64,000 bases of DNA, taken from the NCBI GenBank assembly GCA_964016885.1, contig OZ024746.1, positions 47,678,001-47,742,000 of the forward strand, in the 5' to 3' direction. The notes beneath the pieces are model-generated. The model was given only the letters and a program-made list of their open reading frames with translations. It ran no database searches and was not told where the DNA came from. The DNA is from Eledone cirrhosa (Eukaryota). Each line of letters opens with the position of its first letter. The first letter of the stretch is position 1. Of the stretch, positions 27,722 through 62,010 are shown piece after piece. A program made the position numbers and the translations under genes.

Positions 27722-28535
27722 TTGTTATACTTTGGGAGGGTCATGTTGCCAATAAGAAACACACGCACCAGTTGCTTTCACTTCAATTTATTATATATTT
27801 ATAAATTTACAAATTTATAAATTTATAAATTTCTGGTTGGTTGGTTGGTTCAAGATAATAAAGAATCATCTGTACTCTACCAACATGCTAAGATAGAACA
27901 CAAGGGTAAATTAGAGAACATAGAAATAAAAATAGAATCTACACGCAGAAAAGATGCAATGTTTAGACAAATTACAGAGGCAATAAACATAAAAGAATTA
28001 CAACCAAAATTAAATAGAAAATATGAGTGGAACAGCAACATCACAACTTACAATTAAGGACAAAATGAAAACACACACACACATAGAACAAACAACCAAC
28101 CAATAACATGTAAATAAATAAATAAATAAACAAATAGATAAATGAACATAAACACACACAGACACCCGGATGTGGCGCATGCGCAAACTGAGCACACAAC
28201 ACACACACAGAAACAAAATGGCGTAGGACAGAACAAAGGAGAGGCACGGAGACAAAGAAAAGAATCCCCAGTCACTGAAGAGGTCACAGAGTGTGTGACG
28301 AAAGGACTATGACTATATATAAACAACTATCTGGTTGTGGAACCAACCAACCTACCAGAAATTTATAAATTTATAAATTTGTAAATTTATAAATATATAA
28401 TAAATTGAAGTGAAAGCAACTGGTGTGTGTGTTTCTTATTGGCAACATGACCCTCCCAAAGTATAACAATATCGGTTTCAACACACGATTTCAGATAAAG
28501 AATCTTGCTAAACAAATTCAGAAACGAATTATGTA
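27722..28535 (+). mobile_element. 5'-truncated PLE with inverted pLTR arm
   Basis: 27722-27851 is the inverse of 28340-28470; GIY-YIG tail ORF 27845-28057 (SVLYQH..RQITEAINIK..PKLNRKYEW). Confidence 0.85.
28270..28314 (+). ncRNA. Minimal type I HHR, family G
   Basis: agtca-CTGAAGA-g-gtcaca gagtg tgtgac-GAAA-g ga c-TA-tgact. Confidence 0.85.
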
Positions 28536-28596
28536 TATATATATATAGATGAAATAAATATGGTTTTATAAATATAGTTTCCATTTATTTAATATC

Positions 28597-31444: not shown

Positions 31445-31498
31445 AGAAATGGCTTCTACTGTTTCATTAGGAAGAAATCATCAGGAAAGTTCGGGATA

Positions 31499-31562
<64 letters not shown>

Positions 31563-31683
31563 TATCCCTGATGATTTCTAAAGAATGAAACAGTTCTAGT
31601 CCTGTAGAAACACATCTCTCTCTCTCTCTATATATATATGTTTCATTCGGAGGAAATCATCAGAAAAGCTCGGGATAAACATA
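31445..31683. ncRNA. Cluster of three family A HHR copies in alternating orientation
   Basis: 31445-31500(-, stem III deleted), 31565-31612(+, full core CTGATGA..GAAAcag..ctgTA), 31640-31683(-, truncated). Confidence 0.75.
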
Positions 31684-31702
31684 TATATATATACATATAT
31701 AT

Positions 31703-32630
31703 AATGGTTGGACAATACATGTGTCCCTAAGCGCTTTGTGCGTGTAGGGATATATACTTTATTATTATTCTCTTGGTCGAGAAAAAAAAAAAAAAATTTG
31801 GTCGTTCTGACTGCTGCTAGTTATAGTGGTAGTAGACTGACCTCCCTGCCTATGCTTCTATCTTTACACACAGCACTTGACGGAATTGCTTCCACATCAT
31901 TTATTCTCATCTCGGGAACAATTTTGAATAGCGCCAGTTCGTAATTTGAACTCGGGAATTTTATATTCTCCGAGTGAAAAGATCCTTCTGATGAGAGTTT
32001 ATCTTTGCAATGGATGCCGTAAGGACTGTCCATTTATTTTTGAGACTCGAAACCGATTCGGTAACGGTAACCATAGTGAGTATAGTTAATTTTAAAAAAT
32101 TTATTTTGAAACTTTTTCTTATTTGCTAAACCTTGATTATATATGTTCTGGCTCGTTAATTTATTAACCTGCCATTGAAACACATTGGCATATGGTTGGA
32201 TAATACATGTGTCCCTAAGCGCTTTGTGCGTGTAGGGATATATACTTTATTATTATTCTCTTGGTCGAGAAAAAAAAAAAAAAATTTGGTCGTTCTGACT
32301 GCTGCTAGTTATAATGGTAGTAGACTGACCTCCCTGCCCATGCTTTTATCTTTACACACGGCACTTGACGGAATTGCTTCTACATCATTTATTCTCATCT
32401 CGGGAACAATTTTGAATAGCGCCAGTTCGTAATTTGAACTCGGGAATTTTATATTCTCCGAGTGAAAAGATCCTTCTGACGAGAGTTTATCTTTGCAATG
32501 GATGCCGTAAGGACTGTCCATTTATTTTTGAGACTCGAAACCGATTGGGTAAAGGTAACCATAGTGAGTAAAGTTAATTTTTAAAAATTTATTTTGAAAC
32601 TTTTTCTTATTTGCTAAACCTTGATTATAT
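31703..32630 (+). mobile_element. Tandem dimer of a 488-bp non-coding HHR monomer (retrozyme-like)
   Basis: Period 488; HHRs at 31984-32068 (CTGATGA) and 32472-32556 (CTGACGA), stem II gagttt/agactc, GUA triplet. Confidence 0.9.
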
Positions 32631-32651
32631 ATATATATATGTTTATCCCGA

Positions 32652-32702
32652 GCTTTCCTGATGATTTCCTCCGAATGAAACAATTTTAGTCCTGTAAAAG
32701 CC
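32652..32702 (+). ncRNA. Family A HHR, slightly decayed
   Basis: gctttc-CTGATGA-tttcctccgaat-GAAA-caattttagtcctg-TA-aaagc. Confidence 0.7.
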
Positions 32703-32910: not shown

Positions 32911-33474
32911 CCTGTCTCATGGTCGGGTCGTTGGCGACTAAACTGGCAGCCCCACCAAGGTTTCTTGGTGAGGAGGGTGACTTTGGACATCCTGCAGGAC
33001 TAAAAACAAAACCTGTCAAAGGACAAAGGAGCTCTTAAGAGTCAATGGCCATCCAAAATCACCGGGAGAGATGACCCCTTAGCCTTTGTCAAGGCAGAAT
33101 TCTAGGAGAAGGAAAACGCTGATATAACACCTGTAACCCTGATGGTATCCAATGATGTTGATTTGTTCTTCTTTTTGGTAAATATCATCTTGGTTAAGAG
33201 AGTGGGACTGGCTTTGTGCAGTGCCTTTGCTCACTATAAAAGCTTCACGGCACAGGCATTGCTTTATATCTGGAGATCTCTCTGCACTTGTCATCACATG
33301 GTACCATGGGACCAGCACTATATGTCAATAATTGTCACAAGTGTAGTGTTTGTACCAGAGTTTTCAAGTCGCTGGCTGGACTAAAAAGTCACGCTCGTTC
33401 AGCGCATCGGTAGGGGTTCTCCTACATGGATATAAAGTAGTGGCCGTACTCGAAAACGAGTTGGCAGCCACCAT
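32911..33474 (+). mobile_element. RTE-derived element copy
   Basis: Aligns with 16897-17444; (TATG)n on both sides. Confidence 0.85.
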
Positions 33475-33598
33475 GTATGTATGTATGTATGTATGTATGT
33501 ATGTATGTATGTATGTATGTATGTATGTATGTGTATATATGTATGTATATACATATATATATATATATATAGAGATATATATGTGTATGTGTACATAT

Positions 33599-33658
<60 letters not shown>

Positions 33659-33721
33659 GATTATAGCGAATATTTTCTATAACCCAGCTTTGATTACATA
33701 TATATATATATACATATATAT

Positions 33722-34316
33722 ATGGTGGCTGCCAACTCGTTTTCGAGTACGGCCACTACTTTATATCCATGTAGGAGAACCCCTACCGATGCGCTGAACG
33801 AGTGTGATTTTTAGTCCAGCCAGCGACTGAAAACTCTGGTACAAACACTACACTTGTGACAATTACTGACACATATTGCTGGGCCCATGGTACCATGTGA
33901 CGACAAGTGCAGAGAGATCTCCAGATATAAAGCAATGCCTGTGCTGTGAAGCTTTTATAGTGAGCAAAGGCACTGCACAAAGCCAGCCCCACTCTCTTAA
34001 CCAAGATGATATTTACCAAAAAGAAGAACAAGTCAACATCATTGGATAGCATTAGGGTTGCAGGTGTTATATCAGAGTTTTCCTTCTCCTAGAATTCTGC
34101 CTTGACAAAGGCTAAGGGGTCATCTCTCCCGGTGATTTTTGATGGCCATTGACTCTTAAGAGCTCCTTTGCCCTTTGACAGGTTTTGTTTTTAGTCCTGC
34201 AGGATGTCCAAAGTCACCCTCCTCACCAAGAAACCTTGGTGGGGTTGCCAGTTTAGTAGCCAACGACCCGACCATGAGACAGGTTGTACTGGGATACATG
34301 TTACCAGTGACCTGAC
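33722..34316 (-). mobile_element. RTE-derived element copy, inverted
   Basis: Reverse complement of the 16851 family, adjoining (CATA)n. Confidence 0.85.
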
Positions 34317-34409: not shown

Positions 34410-34748
34410 TATATGGAAAGTTATATTTAAATTGTTGGGTTACAACTAGTAAATATTTATAACTGATATAAAAGCACTCGACAAGTATTTGGAGTATATT
34501 TACGATATTAAATAAATGGAAACTATATTTATAAAACCATATTTATTTCATTATATATATTTCAGGGATATCATATTAACAATATGCTATGCCTTCCTCA
34601 GACAAAATACAATATAGACAGTTTTATAGATAAATTGTATTTTATTTTGTCTGAGGAAGGCATAGCATATTGTTAATATGATATCCCTGAAATATATATA
34701 ATGAAATAAATATGGTTTTATAAATATAGTTTCCATTTATTTAATATC

Positions 34749-34751
<3 letters not shown>
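34393..34751. mobile_element. Fold-back HHR element, family I, with an HHR on each strand
   Basis: Arms 34501-34609 / 34643-34751; ttattttgt-CTGAGGA-agg..catatt gtt aatatg..cct-GAAA-tatata-TA-atgaaataa. Confidence 0.8.
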
Positions 34752-34807
<56 letters not shown>

Positions 34808-37374: not shown

Positions 37375-37516
<142 letters not shown>

Positions 37517-37517
37517 A

Positions 37518-38106
<589 letters not shown>

Positions 38107-38360: not shown

Positions 38361-38519
38361 CATATATATGGAACAAGGTAGATGGTGTCAGTCATTACCT
38401 TTAAAATTCATACCTAAAGGCTTTGAAATGTTTATTCGCAAACATATCGTATGTTATTCGATATACATACTTTACATACATATATGTATACAGCTATGTT
38501 GGCGCGAACATCCCATCCT

Positions 38520-38603
<84 letters not shown>

Positions 38604-38614
38604 ATCTATCTATC

Positions 38615-39210
<596 letters not shown>

Positions 39211-39232
39211 TACATATATATATATATATATA

Positions 39233-39289
<57 letters not shown>

Positions 39290-39361
39290 ATATATATACA
39301 TATATATATATATAATATATATACATATATATATATATATATAATATATTTACATATATAT

Positions 39362-39423
<62 letters not shown>

Positions 39424-39612
39424 ATTATATATATATATATTATATATTATATATATATATATTATATATTATATATATATATATTATATATTATATATAT
39501 ATATATTATATATTATATATATATATATTATATATTATATATATATATTATATATATATATATATTATATATTATATATTATATATATTATATATTATAT
39601 ATATATATATAT

Positions 39613-39660
<48 letters not shown>

Positions 39661-39663
<3 letters not shown>

Positions 39664-42054
39664 AGTATGTACACGTACATACATATATGTATACCGACGT
39701 ACAGTAGTATGTATATATATATATACATACATGCACACATATATATATGCACGTATGGATTCACCGAACATTTATTATAATGCTCGGTGTGTTTGTAAAC
39801 AAACATCCCGTATTAAGCCGTAGTGTCTAGCAACCACCGTTGCTCGTTTGTTCAACACTGACAAAGGAACGCTGTACTAGTTTCAAGCTTGTTAGCTATC
39901 GTCAGCAACGTATACCTTCCTGCCAGATTGTTGAACGTATATACTTACCTTATGCATATTAACGGCTGAGTAGCCCAATATGCATATCGAGTGGGTTAAT
40001 CGGCCGGGTGCACCGAAAACGATAAACGGAAAAAATGAAACGATATTTCATTTCCCACTCTTAGTACGGCTGTTACTTAAATATAAGTATGTACACGTAC
40101 ATACATATATGTATACCGACGTACAGTAGTATGTATATATATATATACATACATGCACACATATATATATGCACGTATGGATTCACCGAACATTTATTAT
40201 AATGCTCGGTGTGTTTGTAAACAAACATCCCGTATTAAGCCGTAGTGTCTAGCAACCACCGTTGCTCGTTTGTTCAACACTGACAAAGGAACGCTGTACT
40301 AGTTTCAAGCTTGTTAGCTATCGTCAGCAACGTATACCTTCCTGCCAGATTGTTGAACGTATATACTTATCTTATGCATATTAACGGCTGAGTAGCCCAA
40401 TATGCATATCGAGTGGGTTAATCGGCCGGGTGCACCGAAAACGATAAACGGAAAAAATGAAACGATATTTCATTTCCCACTCTTAGTACGGCTGTTACTT
40501 AAATATAAGTATGTACACGTACATACATATATGTATACCGACGTACAGTAGTATGTATATATATATATACATACATGCACACATATATATATGCACGTAT
40601 GGATTCACCGAATATTTATTATAATGCTCGGTGTGTTTGTAAACAAACATCCCGTATTAAGCCGTAGTGTCTAGCAACCACCGTTGCTCGTTTGTTCAAC
40701 ACTGACAAAGGAACGCTGTACTAGTTTCAAGCTTGTTAGCTATCGTCAGCAACGTATACCTTCCTGCCAGATTGTTGAACGTATATACTTACCTTATGCA
40801 TATTAACGGCTGAGTAGCCCAATATGCATATCGAGTGGGTTAATCGGCCGTTAATATGCATAAGGTAAGTATATACGTTCAACAATCTGGCAGGAAGGTA
40901 TACGTTGCTGACGATAGCTAACAAGCTTGAAACTAGTACAGCGTTCCTTTGTCAGTGTTGAACAAACGAGCAACGGTGGTTGCTAGACACTACGGCTTAA
41001 TACGGGATGTTTGTTTACAAACACACCGAGCATTATAATAAATGTTCGGTGAATCCATACGTGCATATATATATGTGTGCATGTATGTATATATATATAT
41101 ACATACTACTGTACGTCGGTATACATATATGTATGTACGTGTACATACTTATATTTAAGTAACAGCCGTACTAAGAGTGGGAAATGAAATATCGTTTCAT
41201 TTTTTCCGTTTATCGTTTTCGGTGCACCCGGCCGATTAACCCACTCGATATGCATATTGGGCTACTCAGCCGTTAATATGCATAAGGTAAGTATATACGT
41301 TCAACAATCTGGCAGGAAGGTATACGTTGCTGACGATAGCTAACAAGCTTGAAACTAGTACAGCGTTCCTTTGTCAGTGTTGAACAAACGAGCAACGGTG
41401 GTTGCTAGACACTACGGCTTAATACGGGATGTTTGTTTACAAACACACCGAGCATTATAATAAATGTTCGGTGAATCCATACGTGCATATATATATGTGT
41501 GCATGTATGTATATATATATATACATACTACTGTACGTCGGTATACATATATGTATGTACGTGTACATACTTATATTTAAGTAACAGCCGTACTAAGAGT
41601 GGGAAATGAAATATCGTTTCATTTTTTCCGTTTATCGTTTTCGGTGCACCCGGCCGATTAACCCACTCGATATGCATATTGGGCTACTCAGCCGTTAATA
41701 TGCATAAGGTAAGTATATACGTTCAACAATCTGGCAGGAAGGTATACGTTGCTGACGATAGCTAACAAGCTTGAAACTAGTACAGCGTTCCTTTGTCAGT
41801 GTTGAACAAACGAGCAACGGTGGTTGCTAGACACTACGGCTTAATACGGGATGTTTGTTTACAAACACACCGAGCATTATAATAAATGTTCGGTGAATCC
41901 ATACGTGCATATATATATGTGTGCATGTATGTATATATATATATACATACTACTGTACGTCGGTATACATATATGTATGTACGTGTACATACTTATATTT
42001 AAGTAACAGCCGTACTAAGAGTGGGAAATGAAATATCGTTTCATTTTTTCCGTT

Positions 42055-42056
<2 letters not shown>
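39661..42056. mobile_element. Head-to-head array of a 422-bp HHR monomer (about 3 copies per strand)
   Basis: Period 422; HHRs at 39870, 40292, 40714 (-) and 40903, 41325, 41747 (+): cgttg-CTGACGA-t agct aaca agct t-GAAA-ctag-TA-cagcg. Confidence 0.92.
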
Positions 42057-42087
<31 letters not shown>

Positions 42088-42112
42088 TATATATTATATA
42101 TATTATTATATA

Positions 42113-42236
<124 letters not shown>

Positions 42237-42255
42237 ATATATAATATATATATAT

Positions 42256-42376
<121 letters not shown>

Positions 42377-43072
42377 TGGGATAGATAGATAGAGTAAGAG
42401 AGAGAGAGCGAGAGAGAGAGAATAAGGATGGGATATTCGCGCCAACATAGCTGTATACATATATGTATGTAAAGTATGTATATCGAATAACATACGATAT
42501 GTTTGCGAATAAACATTTGAAAGCCTTTACGTATGAATTTTAAAGGTAATGACTGACACCATCTACCTTGTTCCAGTAGAAGCCAGGGGGAAGCAACAGA
42601 TAGCTGTTTCTGGCTGTGTGTTCTTTGTCAAGATTACACATCCTTCCTCGCCTCATACTGGAACGCAAATATGCCGAAAACATAGTTTTAACGGTTATGT
42701 ATATGGGCTGATTAGCTTCATTTGCATACGGAAATTTAGGCTGGCTTCGCATGGAGAACAAATAGAATTAGGATGTTCGTTCAAACATAGATGTATACAT
42801 ACATGTATGTAAATTCTGTATATCGAATAATATACGATATGTTTACGAATACACATTTGAAAGCATCTAGCTTTGAGTTTGAAAGGTGATGACTGACGCC
42901 AGAAGCAAAAGGGATATACAGTTGAATTAAAGTCTGTCACAGTCCCTAAGGCTCACCAGGCCAGTGCTTATCCTGGACCCTTCCGCGTTAAGCGACAGAG
43001 AGAACAAGACTCTTACATGGACACGATGCAATTTAATCACACACACACATATATATATGTATATATATATAT

Positions 43073-47382: not shown

Positions 47383-48075
<693 letters not shown>

Positions 48076-50755: not shown

Positions 50756-51508
50756 GGGATGGTGAAAAAACTATAGCAAAACAGCCGCTGGCGTTCCATT
50801 TGTTACGCTGCGTGTGAGTGTATGTGTATGTGTGTTTTCGTGTAAATGTATGTGCGTGTGTGTGTTTATGTGACAGTACGTGAGTTTTTGTGTGAATGTA
50901 TGTGTATTTTTGCGTGTTTATGTGAATGTAAGTGTATGTTTGTGTGTATGTATGTGTATTTGTGTGAATGTATGTCCGTGAGTGTGTATTTTTGTAAGTG
51001 TGTCTGTGTTTGCACGTTTATATTTATATACTCATACATATAAATGTATGCATATGCACATACATACACGCAAACACATATACACATACGTGTCAGCATG
51101 TTAAAAAAAATCAAGTAACATAAAATGTTACGAAATATTAGCAGCAACTCCTGAGACACACTATGCAACATAACTGCGAGTGCAAACACCAATCTATAGT
51201 GACATTGATCGGCAGAAACGGATCTGGTTTTGTGACAGCCTTTAATGCACCTTAGAGCTGAACCCATAGCACAGTTGTCCCACTGGCGTTCGTAAATATA
51301 TTCATGTTGAAATCCATGGGGAAATTGTGGCCGGTCATGATGCTGCTAGGAATTGAGATTCCAGGATATACATAGATACATACATATATATACAATTGAA
51401 TATATGCGAGGGATGAACACCGATACAAGTATACATGTGTTCGAATTGCAAATGACCAAGTTAGCTATTTAATTGTAAACGACTATTTTGAGTTTCTAAC
51501 TCAATCTA

Positions 51509-51552
<44 letters not shown>

Positions 51553-51775
51553 TTGCGAGGTTTTTTATATGAAATCGTGTGTCGAAACAAATATTGTTAT
51601 ACTTGGGGAGGGTCATATTTGTGTAATATTGCCAGAATTAATAACAGAACACACTCACTGTTTGGTTGGTTTTCGCTTCTCGCTTCTGTGTCTTTTATAT
51701 CGGTAATCTAACTTACTCGGTCCTCAATGTTGCCATTGACTGACCGGCGGTCAAAACTGTAAAACTAGAAACGTA

Positions 51776-52114
51776 GTTTATAGCATAAGATGTACAGAGG
51801 GTACTTGCAGAAACATGATAACAACATACATAGGTGAGACAGCTCGTAGCATAGGTGAAAGGATAGACCAACACTGGGGGGAACTAAAAGGACGAAAAAA
51901 CGGGTCAGTACTATACGAACATGCTAGACAACAACATGACGGTAACATAGACAACATAGAAATTAGAATAATATCTAAACATAGAAATGACCCAGCAGAT
52001 AGGCAAATCAGAGAGGCCAGTGAAATAGAAATTAGAAGACCAAGGCTAAACAGAAAGAATGAATGGAATAACAACAACACCCAAACAAACAACACTGACC
52101 TAAGAGAAGTATAA
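51776..52114 (+). pseudogene. PLE GIY-YIG endonuclease fragment
   Basis: YSIRC..TYIGETARSIGERIDQH..SVLYEH..RQIREA..PRLNRKNEW. Confidence 0.88.
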
Positions 52115-52346
52115 ATAAGTAAATAAAATAAAATAAATAAATAAATAAATACATACACAAGCACAATAACAAGAAGCACATAAACACAGCACCCATCACA
52201 CAGCAAACAAAACACTATACACACACGCAAACGCATACGCAAAGAAGACAAAATAAAATAAACAAACAAGCAAATAAATAAATAAATATATAGACAGACT
52301 GAATAAAAATGGCGTAGACATACAATACAACAGGAGGAAAATATAG

Positions 52347-52390
52347 CACCACTGACGATGTTGCAGATGTGCAACGAAAGATTTATGATA
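52347..52390 (+). ncRNA. Minimal type I HHR, family G
   Basis: CTGACGA-t-gttgca gatg tgcaac-GAAA-g at t-TA; stem I is weak. Confidence 0.7.
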
Positions 52391-52631
52391 AACTATATAT
52401 ATGTGTTTGTGTCTATATTGTATCTGTATTATTTTTGACCGCCGGTCAGTCAATGGCAACATTGAGGACCGAGTAAGTTAGATTACCGATATAAAAGACA
52501 GCGAGAAGCGAAAACCAACCAAACAGTGAGTGTGTTCTGTTATTAATTCTGGCAATATTACACAAATATGACCCTCCCCAAGTATAACAATATTTGTTTC
52601 GACACACGATTTCATATAAAAAACCTCGCAA

Positions 52632-52675
<44 letters not shown>

Positions 52676-54650
52676 TAGATTGAGTTAGAAACTCAAAATA
52701 GTCGTTTACAATTAAATAGCTAACTTGGTCATTTGCAATTCGAACACATGTATACTTGTATCGGTGTTCATCCCTCGCATATATTCAATTGTATATATAT
52801 GTATGTATCTATGTATATCCTGGAATCTCAATTCCTAGCAGCATCATGACCGGCCACAATTTCCCCATGGATTTCAACATGAATATATTTACGAACGCCA
52901 GTGGGACAACTGTGCTATGGGTTCAGCTCTAAGGTGCATTAAAGGCTGTCACAAAACCAGATCCGTTTCTGCCGATCAATGTCACTATAGATTGGTGTTT
53001 GCACTCGCAGTTATGTTGCATAGTGTGTCTCAGGAGTTGCTGCTAATATTTCGTAACATTTTATGTTACTTGATTTTTTCAACATGCTGACACGTATGTG
53101 TATATGTGTTTGCGTGTATGTATGTGCATATGCATACATTTATATGTATGAGTATATAAATATAAACGTGCAAACAGACACACTTACAAAAATACTCACT
53201 CAAGGACATACATTCACACAAATACACATACATACACACAAACATACACTTACATTCACATAAACACGCAAAAATACACATACATTCACACAAAAACTCA
53301 CGTACTGTCACATAAACACACACACGCACATACATTTACACGAAAACACACATACACATACACTCACACGCAGCGTAACAAATGGAACGCCAGCGGCTGT
53401 TTTGCTATAGTTTTTTCACCATCCCTTTCCTTCCTTTTACACACACACATTCACACAAACACACACACACACAGACACACGCGAGGGCGCGCACGCGTAC
53501 ACACACTAACATTGTGTGACAGACGGACGGAATTTGCTCAAATTTATATATAGATGTATATACAATATTAATATTGAATAGATTTAATCCGAAATACGTT
53601 ACACCCCAAAACCTTGTCATTGGCTGCATCTAATGAAGTTTATTCTGCTGCGATGATTCTGTCTATGGTTCTAGTTTCACTGCCATTCCTGTTTATCTTT
53701 GCACTAATTCCGGAGCTGAGTAAACGGTAAACATAAAAAAGAACAATTATGTAACAGAAGTTTTTATTGCTCGATTAGTTAAACACTAACGGAATTATGG
53801 AAACTCTTACGTTTTTATACATTGTGTATCTAGGCGTATATTATCAAATGTGAAGGTGCATGGTTTAGTGTTTTCGGTGACACGTTGTGTCTTTGAGTAA
53901 GATTATTTCACGTTGCTCCAGTCCATTTAGCTGGCAAAAATAGGTTATACTTGTACTTCAAAGAGCCGGCTTTGTCACACACTTTGTCATACTGAATCTT
54001 CCAGGAATCTACGTTAAACCTTTACCACTTAAACCGGCTGTATCTGGCCAGAATTCTCTCACCTCTTTCTTTTCAAACCAGCCGTAACTGGCCGCTCATA
54101 CTGATGTTGAGGTACTGTTTTCAAAATAAATAATATCAACATCTTCGATATTATGTGAGATAGTATGTGAGATATTACCGTGAAAATACAACAGTAAATA
54201 TAGAGTAATGTAAATGTTAATGGGTTAAGAGTAGACTCACATATGAAATGCTTAAGTATTTGTACGTTAAATAACTGGAACAGTCGTTGTCAGAATGAAT
54301 GGAGGTACAACAAATATCATTAAATATGTGCTTCGTTTGTTTGTTTGATTAAAAAACAAAGACAATAGGATTTGATTAAGGAGAGATTTAGCTGCTATTT
54401 CTTGCACTCCGTACAACTAGGTACAAATTGTGTCATTGATTGCGAGCATTGTAGAAGTGGAAGGAATGGTATCTTGTGGTCTGTTGAAATATGTAACACA
54501 ACATGAAGTTTGACATGGTAGATATGAGGTAAGAGGCATCGTGGAATCAAATTACGTTCTGAGGATTTAAAAAAAAAAAGTGTGTCGGACTATTAATTAT
54601 TTAACGATAAAGGAAGAAAATAAAGTGAAAGATAGATAGTCATCAAATGC

Positions 54651-54813: not shown

Positions 54814-54976
54814 ATATTGTATATATATATATATAGATATATAGATATATATATACACTTACACACGCGTGCACACATATTACCCAGATATAGTTTAGAT
54901 AGCTTCCGGGTAAATAGCTTCTCTGGTATGCAAAGAAACGTGTAGTAACATATTTCTACTCCTATATATATATATA

Positions 54977-55335
54977 TGGAAAAAATGAAATTTCATTTCT
55001 AACTCTTTGTACGGCTGATACTTTAATATTTATTATAATGTTCAGTTTGTTTGTAAACAAACAGCCCGAATTAAGCCGTACAGTGTTCGGCAACCATCGT
55101 TGCCCTTTTGTTCAACACTGACAAAGGAACGATGAACTAGTTTCAAGCTTATTAGCTATCATCAGCACTGTATACCTTCCTGTCAGATGATTGAACGTTT
55201 GAAAGTTCCTTATGCATATCAACGGCTGAGCAGCCCAATTTGTATATCGAGTGACTTAGTCGGCCTGGCGTACCGAAAACGATAAATGGAAAAAATGAAA
55301 TTTCATTTCTCACTCTTAGTACGGCTGATACTTAA
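54977..55335 (-). mobile_element. Internally deleted, terminally redundant copy of the 422-bp HHR family
   Basis: HHR at 55130-55170 (CTGATGA, GUU); 54977-55024 repeats at 55286-55335. Confidence 0.8.
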
Positions 55336-55372
55336 TATATATATATATACTGATATATATATTATATATATA

Positions 55373-55438
<66 letters not shown>

Positions 55439-58045: not shown

Positions 58046-58104
<59 letters not shown>

Positions 58105-58209
58105 TATAGATAGGTAAATATACACGGGTGTGTATGATTGTGTATAGAAGATTATATTAATAAGAGGAATTCCAACTTTGTCTGATTTACTCGTTTTATT
58201 TACAATCCT

Positions 58210-59001
58210 TTAAAATATATATAATGGTAGTTTTAAGTCTTTTGGGTGTAATAATTTAATGTACCCACTGTTTTGTTCTCTTACTGCCAGTTGTATTTCT
58301 TTTGACTTGTGAACTTTCGGTAGGCCATACAGGTTGCTGGGTTTCGGCTCAAAATTGGTGATGTAGTCTCTTTCCTTATCAGTAAATGAGTTGTGGTATT
58401 TTGAAGCCAGGTTGTTGATCTTCTTCATGATGTTGTGGTCTATATTTGACGGTATTTCATGATAGAATGTTGTGTCTTTCAGTTGTTCCTCAACCAAATC
58501 CTTGTAGTATTCAGTATCCATTATAACAACTGCACCCCCTTTATCTGCTTGTTTAATTATTATTGTTTTATCATTTTGTATACGTTTAAGTGCAAACATT
58601 TCTGATTTGTTAATGTTTGGCCTAACATTAGTATTATGTCTAAGAGGAAATTTAGACAGGATGTCAATGTATTGGTCGAGATAGATATTTCTTCCTTTTG
58701 GCGGAGTGAAATTTGATTTATTCTTTACTAGTGATTCATCACTCTCATTATTTTTATCAGCGAAGAATTCTACAAGACGTAATTTTCGACAGAATTCTTG
58801 GGTATCCTCCTTCAGTTCTTGGTGGTTGACTGTTGGAGTCGGTGTGAATTTCAGTCCTTTTGACAGAATTTGCATTTCATCATTGTCAAGATCTCTTTTA
58901 GATAAATTAATTATTTTAGGATCTACGTGTACAGCTGTTTTGGGTATGTTTCCTCCTGGAGTTTTTCTTTTTCCGGTTTTTGTTGTCCTGACGTTAAAAA
59001 A
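58210..59001 (-). pseudogene. PLE reverse transcriptase N-terminal part, truncated by deletion
   Basis: IINLSKRDL..EMQILSKGLKFTPT..FCRKLRLVEFF..IIIKQADKGGAVVIMD..NLYGLPKVHK. The frame is open upstream of the Met at 58875. Confidence 0.9.
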
Positions 59002-60266
59002 TGAATTTTTCTCTGTTCAGGATTTATATTCCTGTTGGTGTTCGCTTGATGAACTTTTGGTCGTGATATTATATTTGGTTTCGTTATGTATTTTGTCCTA
59101 TTTTTGGTATTCTGTATATTATTTTTCTTCCTGTTAGCATTATTTTTAACAATCTGGGAAAATGACCTAGGTTTGCTTTCAGGTTTAGATCGTTTTTTCG
59201 TCCAGTTTCTTGTGGGCAATCTCTGTTGAGATCTTGAGAGTGATCTGGTTATTCTACGTTTTGTTTCCACATTCCTTGTTGGTAGTCTCTGTTGAGATCT
59301 TGAGAATGATCTCCTGGTTTTACTACTTCTCATGGTCTGGTCAAAGGAATACCTATCGTGTTTGTGCTTTTTGTTCATGTTGTGTGCGATAGGGTGTTTT
59401 TGTAGAAAAAGCGAAGAGTTATTACCGTAGTTCTTCTTTGATTGAAGGTAAGGTTTGTGTTGGCACGTGTTCTGGCGTATGTTGTGTTGATGAGATTGTC
59501 CACTTTTAATGCTTTTTCTCAGGGTTCCAGAGTCTTTACCGTAATTTGCAGCATATTCATCGAGAAATAATTGTTTCTGCTGCCATACCTTTCTTGATTT
59601 GTTTTCTTCTTTTGAGATATCTCCGATCCATAGTTCTCGTAGTTTTTCAGCTATAATACCAGTCGTTAGCTTTGAAATTTCAACTTCAATTTGGTCATCA
59701 ATAGCTTCATATTTGGCTTTGTAGCGGGATTGTTTACATTCAGAAATGGAGATGTCGGTCCTGAATTTTGTCAATGTAAGTTCAAATCGGAGTTTTGTTT
59801 CTTCTTCTGGTTCTCCTGCAATTTCTGTAATTAGGTATTTACGAGGGAGTATGGGTGCCGTTAGAGAGAGCCATTTCGAATGTGTTTCGACATATTTTTC
59901 GCATCTGTATGCTTTCCAGAAATTTTGTTTTCTTATGTTAAGGAATTTTTTCCATGTCTTCCACATTTCTTTTCTTATTCGATGTGTTTTGTTTTCCAAA
60001 TTTCTTTCGTTTATTTCTGACATCCAAGGGGGTTGTGGTAGGCTTTCTCTTGTATCTTTGATAACTGTTGGTATAATTTCAGCTAAATTCTTAATTTCAG
60101 AGTTTATATGTTCAGTTATAAGTTTTCCGTCTGTAGATTGTTTTTCTATTTCCTTTAAAATAGAGGATTGTGTGTCCATCATCGTGATAAGTGTTGATAA
60201 TTTCGATGATATCTCCTTTAGAATTCTTTCTGATTCTGTTGGTTTCATTTGTTGCTTTCCAGACAT
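58923..60266 (-). CDS. PLE ORF1, 447 aa, probable coiled-coil N-terminus and basic C-terminus
   Basis: Intact non-repetitive ORF between the pLTR tail and the RT; R/K/S-rich duplicated SRSQQRLPTRN. Confidence 0.75.
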   Translation of the reverse strand: MSGKQQMKPTESERILKEISSKLSTLITMMDTQSSILKEIEKQSTDGKLITEHINSEIKNLAEIIPTVIKDTRESLPQPPWMSEINERNLENKTHRIRKEMWKTWKKFLNIRKQNFWKAYRCEKYVETHSKWLSLTAPILPRKYLITEIAGEPEEETKLRFELTLTKFRTDISISECKQSRYKAKYEAIDDQIEVEISKLTTGIIAEKLRELWIGDISKEENKSRKVWQQKQLFLDEYAANYGKDSGTLRKSIKSGQSHQHNIRQNTCQHKPYLQSKKNYGNNSSLFLQKHPIAHNMNKKHKHDRYSFDQTMRSSKTRRSFSRSQQRLPTRNVETKRRITRSLSRSQQRLPTRNWTKKRSKPESKPRSFSQIVKNNANRKKNNIQNTKNRTKYITKPNIISRPKVHQANTNRNINPEQRKIHFLTSGQQKPEKEKLQEETYPKQLYT

Positions 60267-60470
60267 GTTGGCATATACACAATAGGAATATATATATAGA
60301 TATAGATAGGTAAATATACACGGGTGTGTATGATTGTGTATAGAAGATTATATTAATAAGAGGAATTCCAACTTTGTCTGATTTACTCGTTTTATTTACA
60401 ATCCTTTAAAATATATATAATGGTATTATAATGAAATAGTATGATAGAATATTAAATTCTAAGTGTTAAT

Positions 60471-60509
60471 TGAACAAGTACTTTCATGCTTTCGCAATCT
60501 TCAGGTTCA
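60471..60509 (-). ncRNA. Minimal type I HHR in the Neptune pLTR (identical inverse copy at 61822-61860, +)
   Basis: tgaac-CTGAAGA-t tgc gaaa gca t-GAAA-gtac-TT-gttca; palindromic stem III. Confidence 0.9.
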
Positions 60510-60886
60510 TGATATGTGGTGACAGTCGAGTTTGCAATTTTCAACTGTAATGAGATGGGTAAATTTCCTACCTTTTATACATTTTATACAGAGAAAAGTG
60601 GCTCCAGAATGCAAAGCCCTGTAAACTGTATTTCGACCAATCAGTGTGTAGTTTCACTGAATTACTACAGCTGATTGGTTTAAGCGTCACGGCTGGTTGA
60701 GCATGCTAACGACCAATAGTCATACCCAACGTATCAATTGTTTTGCTTTTTGAAATGATGAAAATAGCATTTTCTATTAATCATCACCATCAACATCACT
60801 TTTATTATTATTATTATTATTGTTGTTGTTGTTGTTGTTAGTGGTCGTGGTCATAGTGGTAGTAGAAGTAATACCCCTAGGCGTTA

Positions 60887-61440
60887 TTATTGTTCATTTA
60901 GCTTGGGTTTGAATTTATCAATAAAATTCTTTTCTTTGATTTTTCTCTTGATTTCACTTGGGCTGTGTAATTTGTAGAATGGGAATATTATAAATATTCT
61001 CTGACCACATGTTGCCAGGTGGCCGCTTAGGGGTATCTGACGGACATTTGGGTCTCTGATTTGTTGACGGTGTACCCGTGCACGTTCCGATAGTGCATTT
61101 CCAGTTTGACCGACATATAGTTCTTCACAATTCGGGCATTTAATGCAGTAAATTAGATTTCTGCTTTTGCAGTTCATATTTGCATTTGGGAATATTTTTC
61201 CAGTTTTTGTTTTCATATATTGACCGGCGTGTATGGATTGACATGTGCCGCATCGATTATCATTGCATTTAGATACAGTGAATGATTGGTCTTTGTTGTT
61301 AAGGTCAAACTTTGCTTTTGTTAGCAATTGCTTCAAATTTTTTGGCTGTCTTTTACTAAGAGTCAAAGATCGATCTGTGATTAAGCCTTTTAATTCATTA
61401 CTTTGAGCAATGATCGGTAGGTTTGCTTTGGCAGTGTTGA
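60887..61440 (-). pseudogene. PLE zinc-finger linker plus GIY-YIG endonuclease, 5' truncated
   Basis: RQPKNLKQLL..KCNDNRCGTC..NLIYCIKCPNC..YVGQT..LSERARVH..E..FI..PKLN. The Cys-rich linker is characteristic of Neptune. Confidence 0.9.
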
Positions 61441-61473
61441 ATATATTCTGGTGACACTATGACCACGACCACT

Positions 61474-61524
<51 letters not shown>

Positions 61525-61977
61525 AATAAAAGTGATGTTGATGGTGATGATTAATAGAAAATGCTATTTTCATCATTTCAAAAAGCAAAACAATTGATAC
61601 GTTGGGTATGACTATTGGTCGTTAGCATGCTCAACCAGCCGTGACGCTTAAACCAATCAGCTGTAGTAATTCAGTGAAACTACACACTGATTGGTCGAAA
61701 TACAGTTTACAGGGCTTTGCATTCTGGAGCCACTTTTCTCTGTATAAAATGTATAAAAGGTAGGAAATTTACCCATCTCATTACAGTTGAAAATTGCAAA
61801 CTCGACTGTCACCACATATCATGAACCTGAAGATTGCGAAAGCATGAAAGTACTTGTTCAATTAACACTTAGAATTTAATATTCTATCATACTATTTCAT
61901 TATAATACCATTATATATATTTTAAAGGATTGTAAATAAAACGAGTAAATCAGACAAAGTTGGAATTCCTCTTATTA

Positions 61978-62010
<33 letters not shown>

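Follow-up and report, generated by a model that had tools for sequence, protein, structure and literature searches.

How does a small ribozyme repeat that codes for no protein come to be written several times over, and in both directions, at one place in a genome? The locus that raises this question lies at 39659-42057 of the window, that is, of the whole 64,000-nucleotide stretch of Eledone cirrhosa DNA that was analysed. Tandem Repeats Finder reports a period of 422 here, with 2.8 copies at 39659-40850, 2.9 copies at 40836-42057 and 99% matches. A preliminary description of the same DNA had counted about 2.8 near-identical monomers on the minus strand and about 2.9 on the plus strand, joined by four bases, gccg, at 40847-40850. 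Base-by-base comparison with the unit agrees (2.82 and 2.87 units, with GCCG belonging to both arms), and only the outer limits, given as 39661 and 42056, had to be moved, to 39659 and 42057 (Table 1). Unit position 1 is the base right after the predicted cleavage site. The left arm departs from the unit by two substitutions (40613 and 40370, both within one pass) and the right arm by none; two differences in about 2,400 bases uphold the earlier opinion that the insertion is very recent, and it carries the youngest haplotype of the family (T at unit 317). It is not a perfect palindrome: unit 291-330 (40 nt) is present at the junction in the left arm only, and the outer ends differ, with unit 216 on the left and unit 275 on the right. 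Copies of an older, unrelated repeat lie to either side of the (AT)n target, inverted with respect to each other (38370-38640 and 42378-42574; 98% over 154 bp). The locus is a young, recent insertion, one copy of a widespread 422-base ribozyme repeat. We consider it probable that a Penelope-like enzyme, likely of the Neptune type, made this retrozyme insertion, with both strands of the (AT)n tract priming on one RNA that was probably circular.

Table 1. Features of the window that bear on the insertion (positions are those of the window).
Feature	Position	Strand	Details
(AT)n target, left side	38650..39658	.	both outer ends run into (AT)n
Left arm	39659..40850	-	2.82 units; 5' end unit 291, two full turns, 3' end unit 216 (short start site)
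Hammerhead copy	39850..39936	-	predicted cut 39875/39874
Hammerhead copy	40272..40358	-	predicted cut 40297/40296
Hammerhead copy	40694..40780	-	predicted cut 40719/40718
GCCG microhomology, common to both arms	40847..40850	.	base-by-base comparison
Right arm	40847..42057	+	2.87 units; 5' end unit 331, 3' end unit 275 (long start site)
Type I hammerhead, extended stem I	40877..40963	+	predicted cut after GUA, 40938/40939
Hammerhead copy	41299..41385	+	predicted cut 41360/41361
Hammerhead copy	41721..41807	+	predicted cut 41782/41783
59-nt 'tail', unit 217-275	41999..42057	+	between the two fixed start sites; right end only
(AT)n target, right side	42058..42376	.	
Older single-arm relative	47394..47729	+	86% identical; also ends near unit 275 in (AT)n
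Older relative	54972..55422	-	81-85% identical
Broken Neptune-type Penelope-like element	58100..61980	-	GIY-YIG, Cys linker, inverted pLTR, one long and one short end

By its sequence features the 422-nt repeat is a non-LTR retrozyme, a known kind of element. Its unit falls within the 150-450 bp of the tandem units of this class, with a type I hammerhead in each of the six units; it is non-coding, has a GC content of 0.37-0.39 and has no pair of LTRs. No open reading frame of at least 150 aa lies within it, apart from (AT)n read-through, and it is non-autonomous, encoding neither a reverse transcriptase nor a GIY-YIG endonuclease. The predicted circular fold of the monomer is 71% paired, at -146 kcal/mol against -98 +/- 4 for 40 shuffles, values that AT-repeat hairpins inflate. 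Animal non-LTR retrozymes are likewise described as non-coding tandem units with a type I hammerhead each and a GC content below 50% (PMC7229834; 10.64898/2026.07.22.740005), with a highly self-paired predicted circle and with co-occurring Penelope-like elements (PMC7229834). Among Xenopus retrozyme families, 24 of 57 are reported to match known repeats, mostly Penelope-like elements (PMC7229834; 10.64898/2026.07.22.740005). Where these accounts describe the arrays, they are head to tail (PMC7229834), whereas here there are mostly two divergent multimers with two fixed ends; locus-private marks repeated along an array also set the present family apart from the retrozymes as described there (PMC7229834; 10.64898/2026.07.22.740005). 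In the literature searched, with subscription journals mostly outside its scope, no description was found of head-to-head retrozyme multimers with paired fixed ends or of repeated editing marks, and within it the insertion anatomy and barcodes of the 422-nt retrozyme are apparently undescribed.

The ribozymes themselves were identified from their cores, CUGACGA...GAAACUAGUA, which start at 40908, 41330 and 41752 on the plus strand and at 40749, 40327 and 39905 on the minus strand; the core scan thus recovers all six ribozymes that had been proposed. Each unit has CUGACGA, a 4-bp stem II over a U-U mismatch, GAAA and GUA, set within an extended stem I, and stem III is one pair closed by the palindromic loop CUAG. 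The CUGANGA core, the GAAA, the NUH triplet and stems I-III of a type I hammerhead are all present in the unit. The one-pair stem III with its palindromic tetraloop resembles that of axolotl HHR_Amex1, and the U-U mismatch at the base of stem II that of HHR_Amex2 (PMC7229834). Animal type I hammerheads that act as dimers are described as typically having a short palindromic stem III (PMC4209133), and of nine Xenopus retrozyme dimers one is reported to have cleaved in vitro (10.64898/2026.07.22.740005). Rfam hammerhead models give no match at the gathering score or at E values up to 10, and the ribozyme call therefore rests on the core consensus and the stems. The low-E Rfam matches are to microRNA models and were rejected, as they match the AT-repeat hairpin.

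The extended stem I pairs of the preliminary description are predicted by folding, with a modest z of -2.0. It had also seen stem I covariation in a diverged copy at 47422, and one pair does change there (in the copy at 47394-47729) from U-G to A-U. Across 13 related copies, 93% of cells pair, with a two-sided change in one of 28 pairs, and 16-22 of 500 shuffles reach the observed covariation, so that sequence covariation appears to support the hammerhead stems weakly. A core scan of the antisense strand found no hammerhead core, with other ribozyme types covered through Rfam; the occurrence of ribozymes in both polarities, which marks viroid-like RNAs, is not seen here, hammerhead cores being on the sense strand only. 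The earlier expectation that transcription from either direction would yield self-cleaving multimers is only half right: read-through from outside would place about 1.2 kb of antisense before the sense multimer, and a transcript of this kind across 39659-42057 would be expected to form a long hairpin.

The same anatomy recurs throughout the family. The exact hammerhead core occurs 1,809 times in the 3.0-Gb genome, and hundreds of 422-nt repeat insertions lie in (AT)n genome-wide. A genome search for the 275 end running into (AT)n gave 403 exact matches, and one for the 216 end, with a longer pattern, gave 217; the reversed controls gave none in either case. A first set comprised the window and the 25 best-scoring loci (26 examined), ranked by similarity. 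In every one of the 20 fully resolved head-to-head loci of this set, one arm ends at 274-275 and its partner at 216-219, while the remaining six are single-arm (four), masked at one end (one) or abut a related family (one). A second set, taken against selection bias, held all the remaining listed 275-ends on chromosome 1 (C1), 76 ends in 74 stretches. By hand, a divergent partner ending at 216-219 was found for 44 of the 76, some of these partners being only 8-20 bases long; the others are single-arm (27), undecidable (3), 275/275 (1) or chimeric (1). Including 11 ends fetched earlier, 55 of 87 chromosome-1 275-ends have such a partner by hand. A cruder script gave 47 of 83, missing known partners (owing to a 9-kb walk limit and a longer signature) and calling three doubtful ones. 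Anchoring on the 275 end hides 216/216 pairs, one of which, divergent, is visible in the list of 216-end matches. In a public run that may be the source sample itself, contigs have loose (AT)n ends at 41154 and 41213, exactly the 216 and 275 sites. Four near-identical 38-bp mini-insertions (L058, L067, L072 and L078, at about 390-490) are made only of the two ends, with unit 246-275 inverted and joined through CAT to unit 206-216; they are either recurrent or mobile as such.

Fixed ends of this kind are familiar from Penelope-like elements, which often carry an inverted 5'-truncated copy and a tail of 30-40 bp at one end, some clades preferring (TA)n (PMC8557442; PMC3846280). An anole Penelope-like protein is reported to cut and extend both strands and to start at two adjacent internal RNA sites, the spacing of which equals the tail (PMC11167929). 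The origin of the inverted-plus-tail insertions was itself called undefined (PMC8557442). The 422-nt family has two fixed 3' ends that delimit a tail, an inverted 5'-truncated partner and a (TA)n target, and there is good support for priming of the Penelope type on both strands, at two fixed sites. With EN+ Penelope-like elements of the Neptune clade, as these are described, the retrozyme shares the inverted 5'-truncated copy, the tail at one end, the two start sites, the bias towards (TA)n targets and the microhomology at 5' junctions (PMC8557442; PMC11167929). It differs from them in being a 422-nt retrozyme without an ORF, in its tail of 59 nt against 30-40 nt, and in that both arms are whole-unit multimers of up to 16 units (PMC8557442). 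Nearly all resolved retrozyme inversions use one site per strand, whereas the in vitro Penelope reaction, as reported, shows no strand difference (PMC11167929). Among 48 simple inversions, the arms overlap by 1-4 nt at 27 junctions and by at least 5 nt at three; four junctions are blunt and 14 have short inserts.

A second known system in which both target strands prime cDNA is L1 twin priming, where joining by microhomology gives an inversion. The retrozyme insertions resemble it in all three respects. In L1, however, the second start varies in position and each cDNA copies its own part of a single linear RNA, whereas the retrozyme has two fixed starts and its arms copy one and the same sequence over and over.

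A course of events can be proposed on this basis. By analogy with other animals, dimeric hammerheads would cleave the transcripts of genomic multimers, and the products would be ligated into circles of 422 nt. The helper enzyme would nick both strands of an (AT)n tract, each of which would prime reverse transcription on the same RNA; bound to that RNA, the enzyme would begin a cDNA at each of the observed ends, unit 275 and unit 216. Each cDNA runs through the ribozyme junction and stops more or less at random, as the anatomy of the arms shows; on a circle it would go round several times. The junctions show the two cDNA 3' ends united either by microhomology of 1-4 nt (GCCG in the present case) or by a short inserted sequence. 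The joined cDNAs would then fill each other in, presumably during repair, and some arrays would later grow or mix in place. As to the rolling copying of a circle from both target strands put forward in the preliminary description, the both-strand part is borne out by the 216/275 ends and by 19 of the 48 inversions (see below), while the circle is favoured by the sister loci alone.

The nature of the template can be approached through the cleavage site and through variants that mark individual templates. The predicted cleavage site is crossed 317 times over 154 arms, and no arm stops or starts at positions 1-3; the template was therefore a ligated circle or an uncleaved multimer and not cleaved linear RNA. 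Arm 5' ends are more numerous than expected within the hammerhead core (unit 388-411; 17 against 8.1, p 0.004), but this excess fails a 15-bin correction and is suggestive only. Retrozyme circles have been proposed, as a hypothesis, to be templates for tandem cDNA (PMC7229834; PMC4209133). In the logic of Roll-Seq, a change that every pass of a concatemer carries stems from the RNA template, and one confined to a single pass from the reverse transcriptase or from later mutation (PMC11331410); that work is an in vitro assay, whereas here the pattern is read from natural genomic insertions.

Variants were taken from chromosome-1 segments at least 96% identical, with the AT microsatellite excluded. 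A>G makes up 15 of 46 all-pass variants against 17 of 157 single-pass ones (Fisher p about 0.001, the sites not being independent), and eight of the 17 private all-pass variants, from five loci; 17 further changes are partial-pass. T>C accounts for six of the 46, so that A>G to T>C is only 15:6 (p 0.05). Of 11 A>G all-pass sites, nine follow U (background 40%) and eight are predicted to be paired in the circular fold. Paired A>G sites preceded by U fit the context preference of ADAR. When four A>G haplotypes were searched for genome-wide, all four occurred only at their own locus. Those of L102 and L101 each gave three matches, three passes over both arms; the five-site set of L100 gave two, one in each of two arms neither of which fits inside the other; and that of L084 gave three in one arm, where a fourth pass differs at one further base. 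Further marks are 97G with 344T in every pass of both arms at L185, 185G in four of four passes at L189, and a 426-nt variant in 18 of the 19 passes covering the site at L043. Two markers failed as locus-unique ones: 344T, with 19 matches (nine at L185 and ten elsewhere), and 15T (L104), with 58. The insertion at 39659-42057 has no private variant common to its passes or arms, and the mechanism proposed for it is therefore borrowed from these sister loci.

These marks bear on the strongest alternative, in which twin priming at 275 and 216 took place on an uncleaved linear multimeric transcript of a uniform array, with later unequal exchange or slippage and without any circle. Since ribozyme cleavage was reported to be dispensable for the anole element in vitro and uncleaved RNA to be its dominant substrate (PMC11167929), a linear multimer would also pass the cut-site test. 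It would likewise account for most young arrays being identical to one master sequence, and the mosaic arrays and old satellites described below show growth in place. A 2026 preprint, which ties retrozymes to pLTRs by phylogeny, favours local array amplification (10.64898/2026.07.22.740005). On a linear multimer, however, edits should differ between monomers, but at L102, L101 and L084 the locus-unique A>G sets return from one pass to the next; near-identical young arrays also reach 16 units (L043, L048/49) with almost no shared later changes, in a set whose ranking by similarity biases it towards young arrays of great length. Were the template a circle, successive monomers should carry the same edits; a linear multimer is unlikely to give this pattern, barring a donor array that the assembly lacks, and such an array could lie on an unassembled haplotype. 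On balance we regard the linear multimer as unlikely and, given Penelope-type priming from both strands, favour the circular template with fair assurance.

Far less probable is an origin of the second arm as a DNA copy of the first, either by one cDNA folding back or by self-priming of an antisense template, as proposed for rotifer Penelope elements (PMC3846280). This would explain variants shared between arms. The arms of one locus tend to share a haplotype: at family-polymorphic sites with a mean minor frequency of 0.09, in 30 loci and clustered in few, the minor allele is in both arms at 26 sites and in only one at 14. Arm lengths also correlate (rho 0.59 in the pooled sets, partly through selection), and junctions are nearly symmetric in four of the 48 inversions. 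In 19 of the 48, however, including 39659-42057 and L100, neither arm fits inside the other, and in those 19 the second arm is therefore not a DNA copy of the first; nor does folding back predict outer ends at fixed, different sites. It is contradicted for the 19 loci and could still hold for the minority with symmetric junctions. That the palindrome is a fold-back read or assembly artefact, which the preliminary description had named as a case against itself, is scarcely credible: public-run contigs list none across the 40847-40850 junction, yet the two arms stop at different points of the unit, have different flanks and meet at a junction that is 40 nt out of symmetry, both substitutions are on one arm only, the GCCG junction is seen again in two older insertions whose arms differ in length and ends, and dozens of loci obey the 216/275 rule with different junctions.

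The mosaic arrays do not fit one circle. Those at L044, L128, L103, L061, L074, L096 and L184 change haplotype part-way; at L046/47 two variants are confined to one arm, where they persist through 13 consecutive passes, and within L061 a stretch of 2.6 kb is duplicated locally. Older satellites of the same unit, long and in a single orientation (20-35 or more copies at 91-95% identity), occur at L186-L187, L195 and L196; the nested shared variants of the latter two are typical of growth in place, and such growth also happens. Mosaics and nested variants together imply that other processes are at work as well, be it a switch of template, joining to older copies or amplification at a later stage.

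With the circular template preferred, the most specific form of the proposal is one to which we lean only slightly: on a single 422-nt circle that had undergone A-to-I editing, a dimeric Penelope-type enzyme would begin a rolling-circle cDNA from each nicked strand, the two starts being 59 nt apart. If so, RNA edits would be written into every pass of both arms, and the insertions would be a natural fossil record of single circular RNAs copied into the germline. They would provide direct genomic evidence for retrozyme circles as the transposition template, explain the inverted-plus-tail structure of Penelope elements as one site per strand, and mean that RNA editing feeds heritable variation. 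One small RNA makes testable both the choice between circles as templates of tandem insertions and local amplification, and the route to the Penelope inverted-plus-tail structure, with hundreds of near-identical insertions to show where copying starts and stops and to supply barcodes of the template. As a tool, a retroelement enzyme able to roll on a short circle and to insert into (AT)n would also be of interest, and for the host, kilobase-long inverted repeats could feed double-stranded RNA pathways.

The helper is probably of the Neptune type, and one candidate family, young and recognised by a Cys-x4-Cys-x2-Cys linker before a C-terminal GIY-YIG domain, is represented in the window. Its element at 58100-61980 also has a minimal hammerhead and both direct and inverted pLTRs; the coding region is truncated and falls into two frames, and other copies of its family are 98-99% identical over the pLTR. 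In this element and L177 the long and short ends lie about 54-62 nt apart, like the retrozyme layout. A second Penelope family, at 27722-28560, has an inverted end fragment, the C-terminus of an endonuclease, a hammerhead at 28275 and a tail of about 56-59 nt. Tails near 58 nt in three unrelated families may reflect a fixed spacing set by the enzyme. The genome holds 10,597 GIY-YIG candidates, of which 150 were scored; the retrozyme unit has no sequence match to the pLTRs or loci of GIY-YIG elements in 50 sampled loci, three of which merely have a retrozyme copy nearby. The neighbouring endonuclease matches an Octopus sinensis protein at 79% over 37% of the query (among 33 matches). L162, L163 and L164 carry long open frames (938, 844 and 1,096 aa) in which motifs of reverse transcriptase and GIY-YIG are found, and by their motifs these are candidate active helpers, from at least two more Neptune-type families. 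The locus L125:3529-4582 is chimeric, with the long end of the second Penelope family joined to retrozyme arms, possibly through a template switch between two RNAs; as a pointer to the helper, a single chimeric locus is too little to name one.

Several other repeats were encountered alongside this family. A related retrozyme subfamily with the same hammerhead is found at L033:4809-5529, L063:1644-2247 and L078:4064-4638, at 81-90% identity; in L033 it has a period of about 465 nt and abuts a young arm head to head. More inverted pairs lie in the window at 34420-34760, 37500-37800, 50756-53425 and 32911-34283, among them two short ones with a CUGA-GA-GAAA motif, a 1-kb pair at 98.5% and a 560-bp pair at 96.6%, which suggests that inverted insertion is common across repeat families in the window. 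A further short hammerhead-like family, CUGAUGA...GAAACAGU, lies inside (AT)n at 31484-32700, 400, 49422 and 55568 of the window, with several copies in opposite orientations around a 488-bp duplication.
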